Shown here one piece after another: positions 3,286 through 12,464 of a DNA stretch of 24,000 nt. The stretch is from positions 1-24,000 of the forward strand of contig JBBQLO010000005.1 of NCBI GenBank assembly GCA_038327915.1, written 5' to 3'. Within the stretch, counting starts at the first letter, position 1; each line of letters starts with the position of its first letter. Source of the DNA: Parcubacteria group bacterium (GTDB lineage Bacteria > Patescibacteriota > Minisyncoccia > Phycocordibacterales > DATDWN01). The notes beneath the pieces are model-generated. The model saw only the letters and a list, made by a program, of their open reading frames with translations. It did no database searches and was not told where the DNA came from. The position numbers were made by a program, and so were the translations under genes.

Positions 3286-3759
3286 ATGAAAAAAGAGGTT
3301 ACCATTCTCCTTCACAACATTCGTAGTGCTCATAATGTTGGGTCTATTTTTCGTACGGCTGATGCGGTGGGAGTGACAAAAATATATCTTTCGGGATACA
3401 CACCCACTCCACTGGACAGATTTGGTTGTGCTCGTAAAGACTTAGCAAAAGTGGCGCTTGGAGCAGAAAAAAGTATTTCATGGGAACAAATTATCGATCC
3501 GAAAAAACTTATAAAAAAATTAAAGAAAGATAATTTTCAGGTAGTAGCTTTTGAACAGTCAGTTCGGGCCATGGATTACAAAAAAGTAAAAATTTCTCAA
3601 TCAGTTCTGGTGCTGGTGGGAAGCGAAGTGGGGGGTATTGAGCAAGAGTTTTTGTCTCTCTGTGATATTGTGGCGGAGATTCCTATGAAAGGGATAAAAG
3701 AGTCACTCAATGTTTCTGTTGCTTTTGGTATTGCTCTTTTTCGAATGTTGGGAGTGTAA
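3286..3759 (+). CDS. SpoU/TrmH-family (SPOUT) RNA 2'-O-methyltransferase
   Basis: Motifs HNVGSIFRTADAVG, LVLVGSEVGGI and ESLNVSVAFGIALF. Confidence 0.85.
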   Translation: MKKEVTILLHNIRSAHNVGSIFRTADAVGVTKIYLSGYTPTPLDRFGCARKDLAKVALGAEKSISWEQIIDPKKLIKKLKKDNFQVVAFEQSVRAMDYKKVKISQSVLVLVGSEVGGIEQEFLSLCDIVAEIPMKGIKESLNVSVAFGIALFRMLGV

Positions 3760-3766
3760 TTCAAAT

Positions 3767-4687
3767 TTAGTATTTTAATTCAGCTACTATTTTTCCAGCG
3801 CCGTCATAAAGAATGATGTCTTCTCTTTCACTTTTCCACAGCGTGCTACTACGTTTCAAATAGACTCGCCATTCTTTAGTGTAGAAATTTGCGTCATTTT
3901 TATGAGTATTTATACATGATGTATAATTTATTTTTGAATAAATAAAATTAGTGCATTCGTAGCTCCAGTTGGCCGGTAGATTTGCTGTTTGAATCTGGCA
4001 AGAAGACATCGAGTTGATGTAATCAAAGCATGCATCGTTAATAACTTGATTGGCGGGAATACTCGAAAGATTTTCATTGCGTGGAGCAGGGCAGTTGGTC
4101 GAGAGATACGGGGTGAAATTTTGAAATTGTGATAAGTAACCCGAACATATATTCACTTTAAAACTTGAGCCGTTTGGTGAGAGACCCGTATCAAGATATA
4201 TAGTGTCGCCAGGGGAGAGTGCCACTGTACTTTCGCTATTTTTTGAATTAGCGAAAAAGAGTGTGGACGCATTAGGAATATTTACAATAACACCGCTTTT
4301 TTTACTTGCCAATGTAAAACCAAGAAGGGGTATGGTGGTGGTAGATTGTTCGTTTTCATGTAAAACAATATATTCTTCCGAAACTGTTTGTGAACGAGAG
4401 ACATATTGAATTAAAATTTGTCCGTAATATTTTGAATGAGATTGGTTTTCTTTTCTGACTTCTTCCGCAACGTCCATTTGTTGTTTGAGAGTATCAACTT
4501 GCGTTTGTGCTGTTTGGATTTGTCCAGCAATACTGGTGTCTGTACTTTTTTGTTCTGTGTAGCTGTTTGATGATTGTGTTGCAGTGGTTGTGATGGTCGG
4601 GTGGATAGCGTTTTTTGCCCCACCAATGAGTCCAACTGCGATGATGCCAAGAATCACTATAATACCTATCCATTCATCTTTTTTCAT
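3767..4687 (-). CDS. Membrane-anchored secreted protein, 306 aa, Cys-rich C-terminus; possible lamin-tail-like domain
   Basis: N-terminal TM helix, Thr/Gln-rich linker, then a beta-rich region (EYIVLHENEQ...LSPGDTIYLDTG). Confidence 0.55.
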   Translation of the reverse strand: MKKDEWIGIIVILGIIAVGLIGGAKNAIHPTITTTATQSSNSYTEQKSTDTSIAGQIQTAQTQVDTLKQQMDVAEEVRKENQSHSKYYGQILIQYVSRSQTVSEEYIVLHENEQSTTTIPLLGFTLASKKSGVIVNIPNASTLFFANSKNSESTVALSPGDTIYLDTGLSPNGSSFKVNICSGYLSQFQNFTPYLSTNCPAPRNENLSSIPANQVINDACFDYINSMSSCQIQTANLPANWSYECTNFIYSKINYTSCINTHKNDANFYTKEWRVYLKRSSTLWKSEREDIILYDGAGKIVAELKY

Positions 4688-4707
4688 ATTGTTATGTTAT
4701 CTGACTA

Positions 4708-5610
4708 TTATACCTGATGTATGTTACAAAAATGAGCACTCCTACTCCCAATTACCTTCCGTGTAGTTATTCCAGAACAACCAGTCTTTAAACATTTTTT
4801 TCCAGTTCGACGATATGCTTTGTGAGAATTTTGAAAACCTCCACGTTCCCCATGTATGTTGCGATAGTCAGACATAGAGTCACCCCCAAGATTGATTCCC
4901 GCGACAAGAATTTTCTTCATCGCAGCCCAGATTTTTTTCCTTTCAGATGCTGTGAGTGAGGACACTCTGCGTTCGGGATGTACGCTTGACGCCCAGAGTA
5001 TCTCATCTGAATAAATATTACCAACGCCAGCAATAACCGATTGGTCCATAAGGACGCTTTTTATTTTTCCACTTTTTTTCGTATTTAGTTTAGATGTAAA
5101 TGTTGGAAAGGGGAGATCGTCGAGTGGTTCTGGTCCGAGACCAGCAAGATCAACAACATCTGCACGTTTGGAAGTTTCAAAAAGAATCACTTTGGCGAAT
5201 TTTCGCATGTCAGAAAAAGCGAGATGTTTGCCGTTTGAAAGAGTAAAAATAAGGTGGATAAATTGGTTAAATGAATCGGAAAGAAGTTTCTCTTCACTTT
5301 TCCACACGCCCGTAGGACTCAATGTGTATTTTCCATACAACAGATGTCCGGTCATTTTCATGTGAATGAGAATAGTTTTATTGCCGGAGAGGTGTATCAA
5401 GACATTTTTCCCGCGACGTTCGGCATTGTTAAATTTTGTTCCGACGACCTCTCGTTTAAATTTTTCAAAATACTTTTTGTTTTTTATGGTATCCGTACGC
5501 TTGTTTGCTGTACGAATGTAGTAATCCGTCCAGACATCAGTAATAGAAAGCCCAACAAGAACTTCATTAAGACCGGTGACGGTGGTGGTGACTTCAGGAA
5601 GTTCAGGCAT
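4708..5610 (-). CDS. mutM: Formamidopyrimidine-DNA glycosylase (Fpg/MutM)
   Basis: N-terminal MPELPEV (catalytic Pro2/Glu3). H2TH region VIAGVGNIYSDEILW. C-terminal Cys/His zinc-finger-like segment. Confidence 0.9.
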   Translation of the reverse strand: MPELPEVTTTVTGLNEVLVGLSITDVWTDYYIRTANKRTDTIKNKKYFEKFKREVVGTKFNNAERRGKNVLIHLSGNKTILIHMKMTGHLLYGKYTLSPTGVWKSEEKLLSDSFNQFIHLIFTLSNGKHLAFSDMRKFAKVILFETSKRADVVDLAGLGPEPLDDLPFPTFTSKLNTKKSGKIKSVLMDQSVIAGVGNIYSDEILWASSVHPERRVSSLTASERKKIWAAMKKILVAGINLGGDSMSDYRNIHGERGGFQNSHKAYRRTGKKCLKTGCSGITTRKVIGSRSAHFCNIHQV

Positions 5611-5633
5611 GTTACTTTGGTTTTATTAGCAAA

Positions 5634-6608: not shown

Positions 6609-7205
6609 ATGAAAAAATACCTTGCAGAAGCACTCGGTGCATTTACTCTCACTTTTGTTGTGGCTCTTTCTCTCGCTGGTAAGTTCCCTGTATCGACACC
6701 AGTACTCGCGGCTCTCGTACTTGGAATGTTTGTGTACTCACTCGGACATATTTCTGGTACACACATTAACCCAGCGGTGACTATAGGCGCATGGTCAATT
6801 AAAAAAATAACCACGGTAGACGCCGTGGTGTATGTAGTTGCTCAGTGTGTCGGAGCACTTCTTGCTTTTGGCCTCGCCACCTTAGTGGGAGTCAGTGCAA
6901 CTAGTAGTTATATTGTTGCAGGTAATACTCTCGGTATTGGTCTTGCTGAAATGTTCGGGACTTTTTTCTTTACCTTTGGTATTGCCTCAGTTATGTACGG
7001 AAGGACACCAAGCCAGCTTTCGGGAGTTGTTGTTGGAGGCTCGCTCCTTCTTGGCATCAGCATTGCCGCCTTACTCGGTTCAAACGGAATTCTCAACCCC
7101 GCCGTTGCACTCGGTATCGGATCAGTGAGTTTTATGTACCTCTTTGCTCCTATTGTAGGTTCAATCGTAGGTATGAATGTCTATAAGTACTTAGGAAATA
7201 TTTAG
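6609..7205 (+). CDS. MIP-family channel (aquaporin/glycerol-facilitator-like)
   Basis: Two NPA boxes (HINPAVT and LNPAVALG) in a six-helix hydrophobic protein. Confidence 0.85.
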   Translation: MKKYLAEALGAFTLTFVVALSLAGKFPVSTPVLAALVLGMFVYSLGHISGTHINPAVTIGAWSIKKITTVDAVVYVVAQCVGALLAFGLATLVGVSATSSYIVAGNTLGIGLAEMFGTFFFTFGIASVMYGRTPSQLSGVVVGGSLLLGISIAALLGSNGILNPAVALGIGSVSFMYLFAPIVGSIVGMNVYKYLGNI

Positions 7206-7224
7206 GATAGGTGCTAATTTCATT

Positions 7225-7296
7225 GCCCTCGTCGTTCAACGGATAGGACACTGGCCTGCGAAGCTGGAAATACAGGTTCGATTCCTGTCGAGAGCA
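7225..7296 (+). tRNA. tRNA-Arg, anticodon GCG; no encoded CCA
   Basis: Manual cloverleaf. Acceptor gccctcg/cgagagc has one C3:A70 mismatch. D-arm gttc/ggac. Anticodon loop is cuGCGaa. T-arm acagg-ttcgatt-cctgt. Discriminator A. Confidence 0.8.
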
Positions 7297-7568
7297 CAAA
7301 ATGAGTTTACGAATTTTTGTGCTCTCGAAGTAAGAGCATGTTATGCTCTTACGTCAGGAATCGAAAATCTGTGATAGTTTTCTTGAGTGTAGTCACGAAA
7401 AGAAAACAGAACAGATGTACAGTTCCTGTAAGGAAAGATTCCTGTCCTGTAAGGAATCGAAAAGCGGAGCGGGTACCAATTGAGTGCAATTGGTCGCGAG
7501 CTGCGGACACGACAAAAATTTTTGACGGAAAATTTTTAGTTGTGGACGATTCCTGTCAGGAATCGACA
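7279..7568. repeat. Cluster of direct and inverted copies of the tRNA T-arm/3' acceptor sequence
   Basis: Direct copies of (c)gattcctgtc at 7437-7446 and 7547-7557 (original at 7279-7289). Inverted copies of (c)aggaatcg at 7355-7363, 7452-7460 and 7557-7565. 13-bp perfect hairpin 7289-7301/7315-7327 uses the tRNA 3' end. Confidence 0.7.
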
Positions 7569-7725
7569 GTTCTGTATAAAATCTACATGAGGCTACAGAT
7601 CATATGTCAAAATAATGCACATTGGAAAATAGTGCTAGAGGAGAGAGATTTTATGTTTCTTTTCGCTTACGCGGTCCAAAACAATCTAACTCACACTATT
7701 TTTCAATGTACTTTTGTCATATGAC

Positions 7726-8160
7726 CTATAGCCTCATAGAGACTTTCAATAATACTTTAAAATAAGAGCGTCTGTTTCGCTTTTTTAAGCTCATCAGTCG
7801 GAGTACACACTCCGAGACAGATGGGGTGTTTGTAGCACCTCCAGTTTTGGAAACAGCAGTTGGACTGTTTCCTGTAAACATGGTCACGTCGTCCCACCAA
7901 CTTGTGGAAAGAACTATAGCCCAATGCTTTTGATAACAACACGGGCTTTTTTTCCAGACGCACTCGTGAGCACACTGCCCCACGCCAGTGGGTTGTGTCG
8001 TGCCGGGTGCTGGTCGCAGTGAGCTGGATCCGAACACCCACCATTCAGGCCTGGTGGGTGCTGTTCCTTGACCGAGGTACTGCGCCATGTAGCCAGCCTC
8101 TTTCAAAGCCTCCACAATTTTTTCGGCATTTGTATGCCGGACCCTAATTTTTCTTGTCAC
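7726..8160 (-). CDS. Questionable 144-aa ORF with GTG start; the N-terminal part is plausible, the C-terminal part reads through a non-coding repeat and the hammerhead
   Basis: GTGA start/stop overlap with the upstream 57-aa ORF. However, residues from about 80 onward cover the repeat at 7845-7916 (out of frame relative to its other copy) and the ribozyme. Confidence 0.3.
   Translation of the reverse strand: MTRKIRVRHTNAEKIVEALKEAGYMAQYLGQGTAPTRPEWWVFGSSSLRPAPGTTQPTGVGQCAHECVWKKSPCCYQKHWAIVLSTSWWDDVTMFTGNSPTAVSKTGGATNTPSVSECVLRLMSLKKRNRRSYFKVLLKVSMRL
7771..7821 (-). ncRNA. Type III hammerhead self-cleaving ribozyme
   Basis: Minus strand reads UCUGUC|UCGGAGU-GUGU-ACUCCGA-CUGAUGA-GCUU-AAAA-AAGC-GAA-ACAGA. 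Full core present (C3-A9, G12-A14, A15.1:U16.1, C17). Stem I is 7 bp, stem II is 4 bp starting G10.1:C11.1, and stem III is 5 bp and open. Predicted cleavage lies between 7816 and 7815. Confidence 0.85.
7845..7916 (-). repeat. 3' module, copy 1: TAGTTCTYY...GTTGG...hairpin GGAAACAG/CTGTTTCC...ACTGGAGG
   Basis: About 70 nt alignable with 10405-10476. Confidence 0.6.
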
Positions 8161-8330
8161 TTTCTCTTTCCTAGGGGCAGTAATACCCCCTTGCCAATCC
8201 CTGCCAATATAAAAGCGATTGAGGCGAAGAGAATTCCTTCACCCACATTGACGGGTTGCCCCATCAATTTTTCTCCAATTAGGTATCCTGCGGTTAAGCA
8301 GGAAAAAATAGCTAACAAAAAAATTCTCAT
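8157..8330 (-). CDS. Small two-helix membrane protein, 57 aa
   Basis: ATG at 8330 preceded by CUCUGGGAGGGGUGUAGG. Two hydrophobic segments. The stop overlaps the next GTG start. Confidence 0.5.
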   Translation of the reverse strand: MRIFLLAIFSCLTAGYLIGEKLMGQPVNVGEGILFASIAFILAGIGKGVLLPLGKRK

Positions 8331-8450
8331 CCTACACCCCTCCCAGAGGTTGTTTGCGTATGCCCGCCGGCAAATCATTCCGCACCATTTAACCATCTTG
8401 TGTTATCAACACACAGATGACGAAGTGGTTGGGAAGGGGGAAGTGCACAG
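8331..8450 (-). promoter_or_regulatory. Structured 5' leader, copy C (divergent paralog of copies A and B)
   Basis: Shares five elements with A/B: CCCCCUUCC anti-SD, a variable hairpin, GGUGCG, a hairpin with GGCG loop (UGCC/GGCA), and GCAAACAACCUCUGGGAGGGG followed by AUG. Confidence 0.5.
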
Positions 8451-8524
8451 TAACATGTAAATGTGACCGAGTACCTCCCCCAGTAAAGAACATCTGGTGT
8501 ATGTCTACTGACAACACCAGCAGT

Positions 8525-8552
8525 GAGATGGTGACCGGTACCATCTCTTTTT
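8525..8552 (+). terminator. Plus-strand intrinsic-terminator-like hairpin inside the minus-strand island
   Basis: gagatggt-gaccgg-taccatctc followed by ttttt. The T-run is on the plus strand only. Confidence 0.4.
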
Positions 8553-8622
8553 GTACACATACTCTCCACTTCGGTCCTTCGGGAGAGATACGTTTCAGTG
8601 GGTAACGTATAACCAGGGAGAA

Positions 8623-8964
8623 CTAGGAAATTTTAGCGAGCTTTGCTGCCTCCGTCTTTTTTTTAGCGTAATCCTTTGCCCAGGACAGGGCAACATCAAG
8701 GTGGGGGCCCTTGACCGAGGTCATATCGACCCCGGCCACCTCTATTTCCATGTATTCCACCCACCTCCACTTCCTAGAATAGAAGTAGAGGGAGATTGGC
8801 TTCCCACCAATCTCTCCTACAATCTCCTCTATTTCCCGTTCGCCCCCATCCTTGGGGGCGAGCATGTCCTGAATCTTTTCTTTTTTTAATTTCCACCAAA
8901 TAAAAACAAGAAACAGCATATAGCCTATAATCATCACAATTCTGACATAAATTTCAAACAGCAT
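8623..8964 (-). CDS. Hypothetical protein, 113 aa, with an N-terminal TM helix
   Basis: ATG lies 6 nt after GGGAGGGGGCG of leader A. Hydrophobic N-terminus and charged C-terminal domain. Confidence 0.5.
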   Translation of the reverse strand: MLFEIYVRIVMIIGYMLFLVFIWWKLKKEKIQDMLAPKDGGEREIEEIVGEIGGKPISLYFYSRKWRWVEYMEIEVAGVDMTSVKGPHLDVALSWAKDYAKKKTEAAKLAKIS

Positions 8965-9134
8965 ATTACGCCCCCTCCCAGAGGCTTTTGCACATTGGTC
9001 TGCCGACCAGTCTCAATTTCAAGCTTTCACTTTGGCTGAGACCACGCACCGACTTCTGATCAACTCACGATGTATGTGTTTTTCAACATATACATCCGAA
9101 GCTGAATAAGAAGGAGGACTCTGGTAATTAAACC
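8965..9134 (-). promoter_or_regulatory. Structured 5' leader, copy A
   Basis: The 82-nt block 8969-9050 differs at only 3 positions from 10256-10337. It is followed by a 50-nt variable hairpin insert (9051-9100), then a second shared block from 9101. Confidence 0.6.
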
Positions 9135-9287
9135 ATTGTCATCCGATAAACAACGCAGATTTTGTATAATGGGTATCTGCTGACCCATCCGTATTTTTCC
9201 TATTAGGAAATACGGAACCTGAAAGAACTTTGAGGCAGAGAGTCAGGCTCTGTCTCAATTACGATGTCCCGCTGACTCGGGATGAAA

Positions 9288-10130
9288 CTACTTCTGAATG
9301 AGTAACGTGGGGAGGACGCCCTCTTCCCAATCAGGTTTTTTGTACTTGATCGGGGTAACTCTGTAGGCGTTCTTGTAGAGATCAAGGTACACCCCTTTGT
9401 GCATCGGCTTTTCAGCCGATGGGGTGAATGTCAAACTCCACTGGTTTGTAGCCAGTTTGGTCACCTCGAGGGAATTTCCGCTCGTGGCGGATTTAAAAAA
9501 AAGTTGACTGATGTCCTCCTCATCGAAAGCCTCCCAACCTCCGAAGCTTCCTCGGTTTTCGACTGGGATTCCCGTTCTCCCAGCTTCCAAATTCACGCGC
9601 CGTCCACCACAACTCTGACTTGCGACGTGTGCTTGGAGTGGGTTCACCCCCGGCACATACTCGAGTTGATTCGTGAGTGTGTTTGCGATGTTTGCGACTG
9701 CACTCCACGAAATAATTTTTTCCGGCAGAGGCTTGAGCGCCTGCCCAAGCTCTCCTGCAAAAAGCAGCACCAGCTTCTCTGCCCGAGTTCCGAGGTACGA
9801 ACCTTGTTTCCTAATCCACGGTTTGAAAATCTCGTGGTTTGAGTGGCTTAAACCTTTAAGCCGTTTGATCAATTTATTTCTCACCACCGAGTCACCGGTT
9901 AGTGCGATCATCCGACCATAGTCGGAGGTCTTGTCCCGACCATATGTCTCAATTTCTTCGGCAACAGCAACTGCTGCCACCAAATACCAGCCAATGTCTT
10001 CTATCCCGATCTGGTTTTCTTTCGGTCTTTGTGCGGCAGCTCGGAGAGCCTGCACGAGCATACTGCCCGTGCCAATCTCTCTTTTTTCTACTATCTGGCA
10101 CATAAGTGCCTTCGAATTTTCTACAATCAT
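9288..10130 (-). CDS. Orphan protein, 280 aa, family not recognised
   Basis: Clear coding periodicity with GC-rich codons. AAGGAGA SD lies 5 nt before the ATG at 10130, which I prefer over the track start at 10160. Confidence 0.7.
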   Translation of the reverse strand: MIVENSKALMCQIVEKREIGTGSMLVQALRAAAQRPKENQIGIEDIGWYLVAAVAVAEEIETYGRDKTSDYGRMIALTGDSVVRNKLIKRLKGLSHSNHEIFKPWIRKQGSYLGTRAEKLVLLFAGELGQALKPLPEKIISWSAVANIANTLTNQLEYVPGVNPLQAHVASQSCGGRRVNLEAGRTGIPVENRGSFGGWEAFDEEDISQLFFKSATSGNSLEVTKLATNQWSLTFTPSAEKPMHKGVYLDLYKNAYRVTPIKYKKPDWEEGVLPTLLIQK

Positions 10131-10253
10131 TGCTGTCTCCTTAGCCCCACTCGCCAGCAATAACGAGGGGGTCTGTTTTGGATTTTGATTGAGACTTGCG
10201 CCTCTTGTTAATAAAAAAATATTTCAATCAACAAGAGACGCGAGTTCAAAATA

Positions 10254-10403
10254 TCCGCCCCCTCCCAGAGGCTTTTGCACATTGGTCTGCCGACCAGTCT
10301 CAATTTCAAGCCTTCGCTTTGGTTGAGACCACGCACCTTATTCCTATCAGCTTTCGAATTAATTCGTTAGCTGAATAAGAAGGGGGACTCGGTAGTGAAC
10401 CGT
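10254..10403 (-). promoter_or_regulatory. Structured 5' leader, copy B; its cognate start codon is lost
   Basis: Same blocks as copy A, with a 32-nt variable insert (10338-10369). ATT replaces the ATG seen in copy A. Followed by a possible 13-codon TTG uORF (10208-10249) and a 12-bp hairpin (10198-10241). Confidence 0.6.
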
Positions 10404-10404
10404 G

Positions 10405-10476
10405 TCCCCCAGTTTGGAAACAGTGGTTGGACTGTTTTCTGAAAACTACTCCTGCCAACTCAGAAAAAGAACTACC
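10405..10476 (-). repeat. 3' module, copy 2
   Basis: Begins at the TAG stop of the 64-aa ORF. Contains hairpin GAAAACAG/CTGTTTCC and then ACTGGGGGA. Confidence 0.6.
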
Positions 10477-10666
10477 TCCCGAAAAAGAACTTTCTTACTG
10501 TCGGTGTCATCCACCAGCAGCATCTCAGTTCCCACTCTGAATAATCTAGGAGGGCCTCCTCCACCTCTGCCTGGTTTTGATAGCCGTCCACTAAGGGCGG
10601 CCCTCCAAGACATTCTGGTCGCCCATATCTCCACCCTTCTTTTAACATACTAATAAACATCTTCAT
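10472..10666 (-). CDS. Small hypothetical protein, 64 aa
   Basis: ATG preceded by GAGGAAAGAGGAAAAAA. The SD can pair with an upstream CCUCG segment. Confidence 0.4.
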   Translation of the reverse strand: MKMFISMLKEGWRYGRPECLGGPPLVDGYQNQAEVEEALLDYSEWELRCCWWMTPTVRKFFFGR

Positions 10667-10936
10667 TTTTTCCTCTTTCCTCGACTTAACCCCCGAGGTG
10701 GGTTTTTGAATTTCAGGGATTTTGCAACCCCTCTTTCCAGCACTAACAAAACTTACGCGATCCTAATGCTGGAGAAGAGGAATAACACTGTGGTTATCTT
10801 TTACAGAAATTTTTTCCACGTTATCCTTACTTCTCTATGATCACCCTTCCTATCCGCAGATATTCCAGATAATTTTTGTCAGTGAACTTTCAACTCTCTT
10901 TTTATTGAGAGAAGTGGAGAGGCGACTTTGTATAAT

Positions 10937-10965
10937 AATTTAGTTCGCGTCCACACTTCCTTCAA
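10937..10965 (-). promoter_or_regulatory. Candidate sigma70 promoter for the island's minus-strand transcript
   Basis: On the minus strand: TTGAAG (10965-10960), 17-nt spacer, TAAATT (10942-10937). Confidence 0.3.
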
Positions 10966-11287
10966 TAAGTTATTTGGCCTATTGTGATAAAACAAAACAG
11001 GCGACGAGCTCTTTGAGGGAGCCAATCGCCTGCTTTCTACGATATATCGTAATGCAAGTGTTGGTTGTTTGGTGTTCTAAACATAAAGTATCCCGGCGAG
11101 TATTGCTGTTGGTATCAGCGGGGTACGATATGTTGGGCACCAAGACTCTCTCCTCTAAAGATTGTCTTAAATGTTTTTTTTTAAGTACTTTGTTTTATCT
11201 TGAAAATTCTCATCTCCTTTAATAATATAATCATATCATACTATATTAAAACTGTCAAATACTTTTCTATTTACTTTTTTTAATACT

Positions 11288-11316
11288 AAAAAAAGCCTTA
11301 CGTAAAGCCATTTTTT
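11288..11316. terminator. Weak bidirectional terminator-like element
   Basis: A-run, imperfect palindrome gccttacgtaaagc, then T-run. Lies downstream of the minus-strand gene that ends at 11413. Confidence 0.3.
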
Positions 11317-11412
11317 AGTATCATTTATAAAAGAGGAAGTTTTTGGATATTCACATCTCATCTTCATATTCGATTTGGTATGCTCAGTTTGGAACTTTCA
11401 TATTGAGATGTG

Positions 11413-11868
11413 CTAAAATCCAAAATATATAAGCAATTTCTCAAGGAGTGGCTCGGTGTGCTGCACTTCTGGCAGGTGATCTGATAAAAAAAGATGAATA
11501 TGTTCAGCATTTCCGTTGCCCATGAGCACGACGATGTATGGAGAAAGCTTTTTTTCAGATTTAAAAAATACTCGAGGATATTGATCTTGTGTCTCAACCC
11601 AGAATGACTGCAGATTTGTGTAAGGGTAGTATGTCTTGTTTATCTGGACACCGAGGCGTGTGAGTTTGATGTCTATTATTTGAGGTTTGCGGGTAGCGTA
11701 TAAAGTGAGAACGCTCGCAGATACTACCACTAATAATCCAAAAATAAGATTGTTTAAAATTATGGCGATAAGGGCGATAGAAAGAGTTACCGCTCCCACA
11801 ATCCAATACCAGTCGGTGTTTTTCTCGGTGTGAATATATTCATGTGTTTGCCAGGAGAGTGTTTCCAT
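11413..11868 (-). CDS. Two-helix membrane protein, 151 aa, unknown function
   Basis: Hydrophobic hairpin WYWIVGAVTLSIALIAIILNNLIFGLLVVVSASVLTLY. I prefer the start at METLSW. Confidence 0.6.
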   Translation of the reverse strand: METLSWQTHEYIHTEKNTDWYWIVGAVTLSIALIAIILNNLIFGLLVVVSASVLTLYATRKPQIIDIKLTRLGVQINKTYYPYTNLQSFWVETQDQYPRVFFKSEKKLSPYIVVLMGNGNAEHIHLFLSDHLPEVQHTEPLLEKLLIYFGF

Positions 11869-11999
11869 GTGTAGAGTATAGCACTGAATAAAGTGCATAC
11901 CAATTTCTGATTGCGTTAGTTCAGAGTAACCCAATTGTGAGGGGCTGTACAAATATACTAAAAAATGCTAGAACTAAAAGGCAAAACCGTTTTAATACA

Positions 12000-12464
12000 A
12001 TGAAACCAAAAACAGAAAAAAAAATAATTCAGGTATTGTCAGGGGTCCTTTTTTTTATGATTCTTTGTCTTGGTTTATTCTTAGATCTCCATAGAGATCA
12101 AGTTTATGCAGCAGTTTACTCTGCCAGACTTATTAAGCGTCCAGAGCCATTTACCGAAATGTATTTCAACAACTACACTGCTTTCCCCAAGCAGAGTGTC
12201 TCAGGCATGAGGTTTTCTTATTCCTTTACGATCCACAACATGGAAGTTGCGACATCTGCATATCAGTACTCGACATATTTCGAGTATCCAAACGGTTTTA
12301 AAGTAGGTATGGGGGAAGGAACAATCACACTTCATTCTCTCGAATATTATGTTGCAACCACTACATACACGTTCAAAAATTCAAATTTGCACGGGAAGGT
12401 TGTGGTAGATCTTTTAGGACGTGATCAGCATATAGATTTTTTACTTCCCGATGTAAATCAATAA
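12000..12464 (+). CDS. Membrane-anchored hypothetical protein, 154 aa, first gene of the glycan cluster
   Basis: N-terminal TM helix then a beta-rich domain. I prefer the start at MKPKTEKK. Confidence 0.6.
   Translation: MKPKTEKKIIQVLSGVLFFMILCLGLFLDLHRDQVYAAVYSARLIKRPEPFTEMYFNNYTAFPKQSVSGMRFSYSFTIHNMEVATSAYQYSTYFEYPNGFKVGMGEGTITLHSLEYYVATTTYTFKNSNLHGKVVVDLLGRDQHIDFLLPDVNQ

Follow-up and report, generated by a model that had tools for sequence, protein, structure and literature searches.

What might a single self-cleaving ribozyme do at the end of a set of genes in a bacterial chromosome? This question is raised by a 24,000-nucleotide (nt) stretch of DNA from a Parcubacteria group bacterium (contig JBBQLO010000005.1, positions 1 to 24,000; this whole stretch is hereafter called the window), in which a hammerhead ribozyme lies on the minus strand at the distal end of a GC-rich island. 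What bacterial and phage hammerheads do biologically is still called an open question (PMC6155905). No published report of a hammerhead from the Patescibacteria, or candidate phyla radiation (CPR), was found in the literature. As a ribozyme, with a canonical fold and a sub-type abundant in phages, the window copy is ordinary and adds little; what is new is its context, namely the CPR host, an orphan protein partner and a 5'/3' RNA module conserved in two loci. The sub-type is extended to Patescibacteria and a ribozyme is tied to a specific orphan protein family, and the compact conserved arrangement of a 5' block, a hairpin, the hammerhead and a long hairpin with a complementary motif allows tests of function beyond mRNA trimming.

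The hammerhead and its relatives in phages

7771..7821, minus strand: type III hammerhead ribozyme (sequence, Rfam RF00008, shuffled controls and covarying homologues)

Read from 7821 down to 7771, the minus strand is UCUGU-C-UCGGAGU-GUGU-ACUCCGA-CUGAUGA-GCUU-AAAA-AAGC-GAA-ACAGA, a complete hammerhead whose sequence is exactly that of the original prediction. Stem III comprises 5 bp (U7821-C-U-G-U7817 as the 5' strand, paired with ACAGA 7775-7771 as the 3' strand), stem I 7 bp (UCGGAGU 7815-7809 with ACUCCGA 7804-7798, loop GUGU 7808-7805) and stem II 4 bp, including the G10.1:C11.1 pair (GCUU 7790-7787 with AAGC 7782-7779, loop AAAA 7786-7783), and all 16 pairs of the three helices are free of mismatches. 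The core was judged by C3-U4-G5-A6-N7-G8-A9, G12-A13-A14, the A15.1:U16.1 pair and H17 (not G), and each of these invariant positions is intact (CUGAUGA 7797-7791, GAA 7778-7776, A7775:U7817 and C17 at C7816); moreover, the core columns agree with those of 110 aligned relatives. Stems I and II are closed by the loops GUGU and AAAA, whereas stem III is open and both RNA ends exit there, giving the type III topology, with the predicted scissile bond between C7816 and U7815, 3' of C17. Calculated for the isolated RNA, the hammerhead fold has an energy of -14.9 kcal/mol against a minimum free energy of -16.1 kcal/mol, and with this gap of 1.2 kcal/mol the hammerhead fold is predicted to be energetically accessible.

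The motif is well separated from chance. In a permissive scan, the Rfam model RF00008 (Hammerhead_3) matched 7769-7823 on the minus strand with 44.6 bits and full model coverage (E=1.6e-8 on 601 nt; E=1.2e-7 on 4.4 kb). The covariance-model match is significant (E of about 1e-7), with a score just under the curated gathering score of 48.5. Compared with the RF00008 consensus, the window copy has a longer stem I and a shorter loop 2, with a loop 1 insertion and a loop 2 deletion, and these differences account for the shortfall. The gathering threshold is a model cut-off and not a property of the ribozyme; the default scan of the window at this threshold reported the tRNA only, and the default Rfam threshold misses hammerhead copies like the window one. 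A structural hammerhead finder gave one match in the whole window, at 7771..7821, and among 2000 dinucleotide-preserving shuffles 29 contained any loose match and none contained stems of at least 7/4/5 bp. It had also been claimed that the island holds no second CUGANGA box, and the box at 7791-7797 is indeed the sole one between 7300 and 11300 on both strands. Other known ribozyme classes were not detected at E<5 in the island, nor, at the E-values searched, in related loci without a hammerhead.

To collect relatives, viral contigs of IMG/VR were scanned with the pattern TGTGT-N7-CTGATGAG-N3-RAAA-N3-CGAAA, in which the loops and core are fixed and the stem positions are free. At least 120 stretches matched, many on contigs of about 60 kb, and these contigs often hold 2-6 copies on one strand. 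The shared architecture is a 7-bp stem I with a GUGU loop and a 4-bp stem II with an AAAA or GAAA loop. In an alignment of 110 distinct relatives, which was fitted to the model and whose viral loci were chosen by the stem-free pattern, 97% of the cells are paired, 14 of the 16 pairs have changed in both partners, with a covariation score of 0.85, compared with 0.23 after shuffling and at most 0.08 after sliding; the slid controls pair in at most 46%. All three helices are backed by this covariation. The loops GUGU and AAAA are retained in almost all of the relatives found, which argues for a putative functional tertiary contact between loop 1 and loop 2. Taken from its sequence and that of its relatives, the window RNA is a genuine, probably active type III hammerhead.

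The hammerhead of PaP3-like Pseudomonas phages shares 93.6% identity with one of the viral copies, and the PaP3 ribozyme has been listed among the active core variants (PMC3088659). In the PaP3-like Bruynoghevirus DL54, a hammerhead with a score of 52.1 bits directly adjoins the start of gp71. In the phage copies, a stop codon is followed by a GC-rich hairpin and then by the hammerhead. At 67 of 84 copies, against 37 under a loose control, the end of such a hairpin (minimum 5 bp) was no more than 10 nt from stem III. Downstream, the median distance to the first ATG is 23 nt, and 79 of 83 copies have one within 45 nt. The window ribozyme belongs to this "GC hairpin + hammerhead" RNA-processing module, which is widespread in tailed phages. 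The suggestion that a type III topology is unexpected here was not borne out, as each of the three topologies is documented for bacteria and phages in published surveys (PMC3088659, PMC6155905, PMC7761336) and the same architecture recurs in the IMG/VR copies. Bacterial hammerheads have been found to cluster in prophage regions and may cut long transcripts into gene-length mRNAs (PMC3088659, PMC6155905, PMC7761336), and processing of polycistronic phage RNAs has been proposed (PMC3088659).

The window copy shares with the intergenic phage and prophage hammerheads (Perreault et al. 2011, PMC3088659; DL54) its sub-architecture, the preceding GC hairpin, a position within acquired DNA on the strand of the genes of a polycistronic unit, and the proposed role of cutting long transcripts into defined mRNAs. 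However, phage contigs usually carry multiple copies, with a start codon within about 23 nt, whereas the single window copy closes its unit and gives way to a conserved hairpin of about 170 nt instead of a gene, and its host is a CPR bacterium. The classical type III ribozymes of virusoids and viroids (RF00008) have an identical core and share the three-helix junction with its open stem III, but the window ribozyme is a single copy in a multi-gene DNA island of a bacterial chromosome and not part of a circular RNA replicon. Retrozymes and other hammerhead-bearing circular RNAs share with the window a type III hammerhead in a mobile, repeat-bounded element (PMC4918200, PMC7761336). These elements carry two ribozymes in direct repeats, produce non-coding circular RNAs of 600-1000 nt and spread by reverse transcription (PMC4918200, PMC7761336); none of these traits was found in the window, which holds one hammerhead where viroid-like or retrozyme circular RNAs require two, or a multimeric template, around the unit that becomes circular.

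Two short IMG/VR contigs, L058 and L080 (366 and 377 nt), have the same hammerhead architecture with the loops GUGU and RAAA and are virusoid-like in look; their lengths agree with those of plant sobemovirus satellite RNAs, and from these lengths we presume that they are satellites of velvet tobacco mottle virus and Solanum nodiflorum mottle virus. These contigs show that the phage/CPR sub-type is close to the classical virusoid ribozymes.

An orphan protein family and the conserved RNA elements of the island

The island carries one gene, encoding a protein of 280 amino acids (aa), that is common to all related loci. An exhaustive HMMER scan identified 49 homologues at E<=1e-3 and 22 at E<=1e-10; a word-indexed search returned the self-match only. 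The family shares a conserved, beta-rich C-terminal domain of about 120 aa, with the motifs WEVVRNIANxLTNQL, QAH, GWxAFxEEDV and YRGxYF, and the AlphaFold2 (AF2) model of the 280-aa protein is confident (pLDDT 90.8). No match to the family was found in Pfam, PHROG, PADLOC or PDB sequences, no significant Foldseek match to the model in BFVD or PDB, and no member in IMG/VR by a peptide-pattern search. Its loci lie in Doudnabacteria and Saccharibacteria genomes and in metagenomes, and in CPR genomes the gene often forms a local GC-rich bump.

In two other CPR loci a type III hammerhead lies downstream of the family gene and on the gene strand. In a Saccharibacteria locus (L004:7751-7805), it closes an 8-kb GC-rich, one-directional island; in the other (L009:1635-1683), the unit consists of one gene behind its own promoter, and the hammerhead lies 135 nt past the stop codon. 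The window, L004 and L009 ribozymes have kept the loops GUGU and RAAA with compensatory changes in stems I and II, and protein identity among the three loci is 39-44%. The placement of the hammerhead at the distal (3') end of the island is supported, as it ends the minus-strand unit and takes the same terminal position in two homologous loci. Beyond the family gene, the window and L004 islands have no further gene in common. The L004 island also contains a DEAH/HA2-type RNA helicase (3612-5633; Helicase_C, DEAD, HA2_N, HA2_C).

Other family loci differ in their surroundings. In L007 (Doudnabacteria-type), the family gene lies in a GC-rich segment of about 2 kb flanked by a direct repeat of 114 nt and 98% identity (5191-5304, 7235-7348), with an additional repeat of about 33 nt containing a Shine-Dalgarno (SD) sequence; these repeats suggest an insertion or duplication. 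A hammerhead is absent from this locus, which has just a degenerate hammerhead-like stretch at about 7125-7185. In L014 and L015, tRNA-Ile(TAT) (3747-3820 and 7127-7201, respectively) precedes the family gene by about 470 nt, and in L015 a 24-nt partial duplicate of the tRNA (7259-7282) occurs 98 nt beyond, giving a second tRNA adjacency for the family gene.

In the window, the island is a stretch of higher G+C content in an AT-rich genome, between tRNA-Arg(GCG) and a 179-aa gene, and reads as a single minus-strand unit from about 11260 down to 7570 with uniformly oriented genes. The island is interpreted as horizontally acquired, in a Patescibacteria/CPR genome and adjoining tRNA-Arg. From its 5' end, the unit consists of a promoter-like site, about 1 kb without a convincing gene, three open reading frames (ORFs) of 280, 113 and 57 aa, the hairpins HP1 and HP2, and the hammerhead. 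Its features, in this order and followed by the elements beyond the ribozyme, are as follows.

11230..11258, minus strand: sigma-70-like promoter, TTGACA-17-TATGAT, with 11 of 12 consensus positions and a TG extension (a consensus match only)
11144..11172, minus strand: 5' conserved block, (T)TAAGACAATCTTTAGAGGAGAGAGTC, identical at 28 of 29 positions to L004:25-53
10256..10400, minus strand: structured leader repeat A, upstream of the 280-aa gene (repeats D1/D5, alignment)
9288..10130, minus strand: ORF of the 280-aa protein, the family gene
8969..9135, minus strand: structured leader repeat B, ending in the SD sequence GGGAGGGGG and the ATG of the 113-aa ORF (repeats D1/D5)
8623..8964, minus strand: 113-aa ORF with an N-terminal hydrophobic (putative membrane) segment, an orphan (ORF list)
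8157..8330, minus strand: 57-aa ORF with two hydrophobic (putative membrane) segments and the SD sequence GGGAGGGG upstream, an orphan
7849..7872, minus strand: hairpin HP1, GGAAACAG-UCCAACUG-CUGUUUCC (direct repeat family D2, alignment, fold)
7823..7842, minus strand: GC hairpin HP2, GGAGGUG-cuacaaa-CACCCC (sequence, fold)
7578..7746, minus strand: long imperfect hairpin of about 170 nt, directly downstream of the hammerhead (inverted repeats I1/I5, fold)
7225..7297, plus strand: tRNA-Arg(GCG) (Rfam, 54 bits; ARAGORN)

The promoter is, from its match to the consensus, the likely start of the island transcript that would end at the hammerhead. On the upstream side, HP2 ends 1 nt from stem III, and an equivalent hairpin stands directly 5' of the hammerhead in L004. 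The HP1+HP2 module (7823-7879) is duplicated without a ribozyme at 10395-10446, 2.57 kb upstream and before leader A; the HP1 copies are 88% identical, and the HP2 copies differ in sequence with the hairpin kept. The HP1 hairpin and a leader 26-mer had no match in viral contigs.

On the downstream side, the approximately 200 nt following the hammerhead are 73% identical between the window and L004, the long hairpin folds with z = -9.2 in the window and -7.1 in L004, and the consensus structure of both comprises 41 pairs, 9 of them compensatory. This hairpin carries CUCUCUCCUCUA at 7636-7647 on the minus strand, within AAAAUCUCUCUCCUCUA and partly in an internal loop of the consensus fold. The complement of this motif, UAGAGGAGAGAG (11146-11157), is contained in the 27-nt conserved block near the start of the island. 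In both the window and L004 islands, the 12-mer has exactly two copies, in inverted orientation, with 0.07 expected by chance. Nine IMG/VR matches to the 17-mer AAAATCTCTCTCCTCTA were taken as chance, none having flanking homology or a hammerhead. The long hairpin with CUCUCUCCUCUA and its complement in the 5' block may point to a regulatory RNA that is released, or to the termini of an element. The conserved RNA elements around the ribozyme were not previously described.

Proposed role of the ribozyme and alternative explanations

Herein, we propose that the main role of the hammerhead is the co-transcriptional cleavage of an island transcript of about 3.4 kb just past the GC hairpin, which would set its 3' end, and we assign to this explanation a probability of roughly 60%. 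It is favored because this role has been proposed for phage hammerheads and because it fits the conserved upstream hairpin. Transcription would begin at 11258..11230 and proceed through the long leader, the 280-aa gene and the small putative membrane-protein ORFs behind their structured leaders, and then via HP1 and HP2 into the ribozyme, which would fold during transcription and cut between C7816 and U7815. The upstream product would be the island mRNA, ending in ...HP2-AUCUGUC with a 2',3'-cyclic phosphate, and this HP2-capped 3' end should resist 3' exonucleases. In addition, the cut would separate the mRNA from read-through into the tRNA-Arg gene, which is convergent with the island transcript and lies 470 nt past the hammerhead. 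The downstream product would carry a 5'-OH and would consist of the compact ribozyme body and the conserved long hairpin.

Several observations weigh against this proposal. The isolated 63-mer prefers a slightly different pairing in its minimum free energy structure, with the hammerhead fold at most 1.2 kcal/mol away, and the RF00008 score is 3.9 bits below the gathering score. No gene follows the window ribozyme, unlike in the phage copies: there is no start codon of the phage kind (ATG within 45 nt downstream) here or in L004, only a 3-codon ATG frame and then the long hairpin. Some transcription might end short of the ribozyme, at a terminator-like hairpin in leader A (10272..10257), and cleavage itself is predicted from sequence. 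Moreover, a hammerhead is present in only 3 of about 8 independent family loci and was not found in the other five or so with enough downstream sequence; it is therefore not essential to the family gene. The original prediction of a 3'-processing site agrees with the end-of-unit position and is incomplete, in that the ribozyme may equally define the 5' end of a downstream RNA, because about 200 nt downstream are conserved and folded in both the window and L004.

This last point leads to a possible alternative, to which we attach clearly less weight, in which the ribozyme mainly serves to generate the 5' end of a small RNA that lies downstream, measures about 230-250 nt and is composed of the ribozyme body and the long hairpin. 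With its exposed CUCUCUCCUCUA paired to UAGAGGAGAGAG of the 5' leader, this RNA would be an antisense or anti-Shine-Dalgarno-like regulator, either in cis, prior to cleavage, or in trans, following it. The post-hammerhead sequence is conserved between two islands that share nothing else except the family gene, its hairpin has kept its pairs through compensatory changes, the motif is partly in an internal loop, the 12-mer and its complement occur once each per island with the 5' copy inside the nearly invariant block, and no ORF follows the ribozyme. However, only two examples are available, the L009 hammerhead having neither the long hairpin nor the motif; the motif copies are identical in both islands, so that no covariation shows their pairing; and the purine-rich 5' motif may be a plain ribosome-binding site, as a 54-aa TTG ORF begins 3 nt further on. 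The same inverted 12-mers, 5' block and long hairpin might instead act at the level of DNA as the ends of a small mobile element, either as terminal or sub-terminal inverted repeats or as a hairpin recombination site, with the hammerhead as cargo from a phage ancestor. This we consider unlikely. It is consistent with the GC-rich island in an AT-rich genome, with the adjoining tRNA gene and the inverted fragments of its 3' end at 7315-7569, with the direct repeats around the GC-rich insert of L007 and the tRNA-Ile neighborhood and partial tRNA duplicate of L014/L015, and with the break of the L004 contig 25 nt upstream of the 5' block; nevertheless, family searches found no transposase or integrase in the window island, the 12-mers lie 20-70 nt inside the conserved blocks and are not terminal, and a target-site duplication was not found.

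Two further explanations have much lower probability. That the hammerhead is a decaying, unused relic of a degraded prophage, or a chance match, is very improbable: the lack of a following gene, the score below the Rfam gathering threshold and the retention of a hammerhead in only some family loci would agree with decay, but all core positions and all 16 base pairs are intact, three diverged loci have kept the ribozyme with compensatory changes, none of the 2000 shuffles reproduced the motif, and the flanks are conserved as well. Even less credible is the processing of rolling-circle or multimeric transcripts into circularised unit-length RNAs in the manner of viroids or retrozymes, for example from an excised circular island. 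The type III ribozymes with the same loops in the 366- and 377-nt contigs point in this direction, and circular permutation would make the long hairpin and the 5' block neighbors; however, each unit has one ribozyme, the locus is chromosomal and linear and has a promoter of its own, neither circular nor tandem copies were seen, and no known ribozyme-bearing circular RNA resembles a unit of 3.7-8 kb with ordinary genes.

Setting of the 3' end by cleavage is thus the explanation that we prefer. Beyond it, we tentatively advance a wider hypothesis, which we regard as speculative, that the hammerhead is the centre of a hitherto undescribed terminal RNA module of small mobile CPR islands, comprising the GC hairpin, the hammerhead and the hairpin of about 170 nt, in which the CUCUCUCCUCUA loop of the released RNA would pair with the 5' leader block and the 280-aa family would be the protein partner. 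If true, the ribozyme would license an antisense or autoregulatory circuit within the islands, or else the module would mark the ends of the element.

Leaders, small ORFs and surroundings of the island

Leaders A and B, of about 150 nt each, are 89-96% identical and both end in a strong SD sequence (GGGAGGGGG). They contain a P1-like helix, UUAUUCAGC...GCUGAUAGGAAUAA, and several hairpins, and a similar helix, UUAUUCAGC...UGAUAGAUUAGAAUAA, precedes the helicase gene in L004 (3510-3570). No Rfam match (E<5) and no blastn or nhmmer match in any other locus was obtained for these leaders, which could be a cis-regulatory RNA not previously known or a processing site. In family searches, the 113-aa and 57-aa ORFs had no family match, and the 113-aa ORF had no homologue in related loci. 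A 10-codon mini-ORF with a good SD sequence (11209-11177, minus strand) lies directly past the predicted transcription start; the 54-aa TTG ORF (11143-10979, minus strand) starts 3 nt past the conserved purine motif, and L004 has no start codon at the equivalent place. A 144-aa ORF running through the ribozyme (7726-8160) was rejected as a real gene over its 3' part because it overlaps HP1, HP2 and the ribozyme and has no tblastn homologue in related loci.

The stretch at 7315-7569, which lies between the tRNA gene and the long hairpin, contains several incomplete, inverted copies of the 3' end and T-arm of tRNA-Arg, with the fragments TCGAGAGCACAAAA, TTCGATTCCTGACGTAAGAGCA, TTCGATTCCTTAC and GTCGATTCCTGAC on the minus strand. 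These fragments may be remnants of an attachment site or of a decayed tRNA gene.

Neither the island region (7000-12000) nor the hammerhead module had a blastn match in GenBank phages or PLSDB plasmids. Island sequence could also be assembled from the sequencing run SRR19962015. A comparison with empty sites gave no island boundaries, as the closest homologues of the window aquaporin (69-74% identity) lie in unrelated gene neighborhoods. At the start of the window, positions 1-560 are GC-rich (0.51) and highly structured, with no convincing ORF, no Rfam match and no similarity to the island; this stretch is cut by the window edge. In its gene content the window resembles a Patescibacteria/CPR genome. 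Relatives of the window aquaporin with 63-68% identity were found in Minisyncoccia, Falkowbacteria and Zambryskibacteria. Named by reading their translations, the genes of the window include those for a type IV pilin, MutM, RuvA, S20 and glycosyltransferases.

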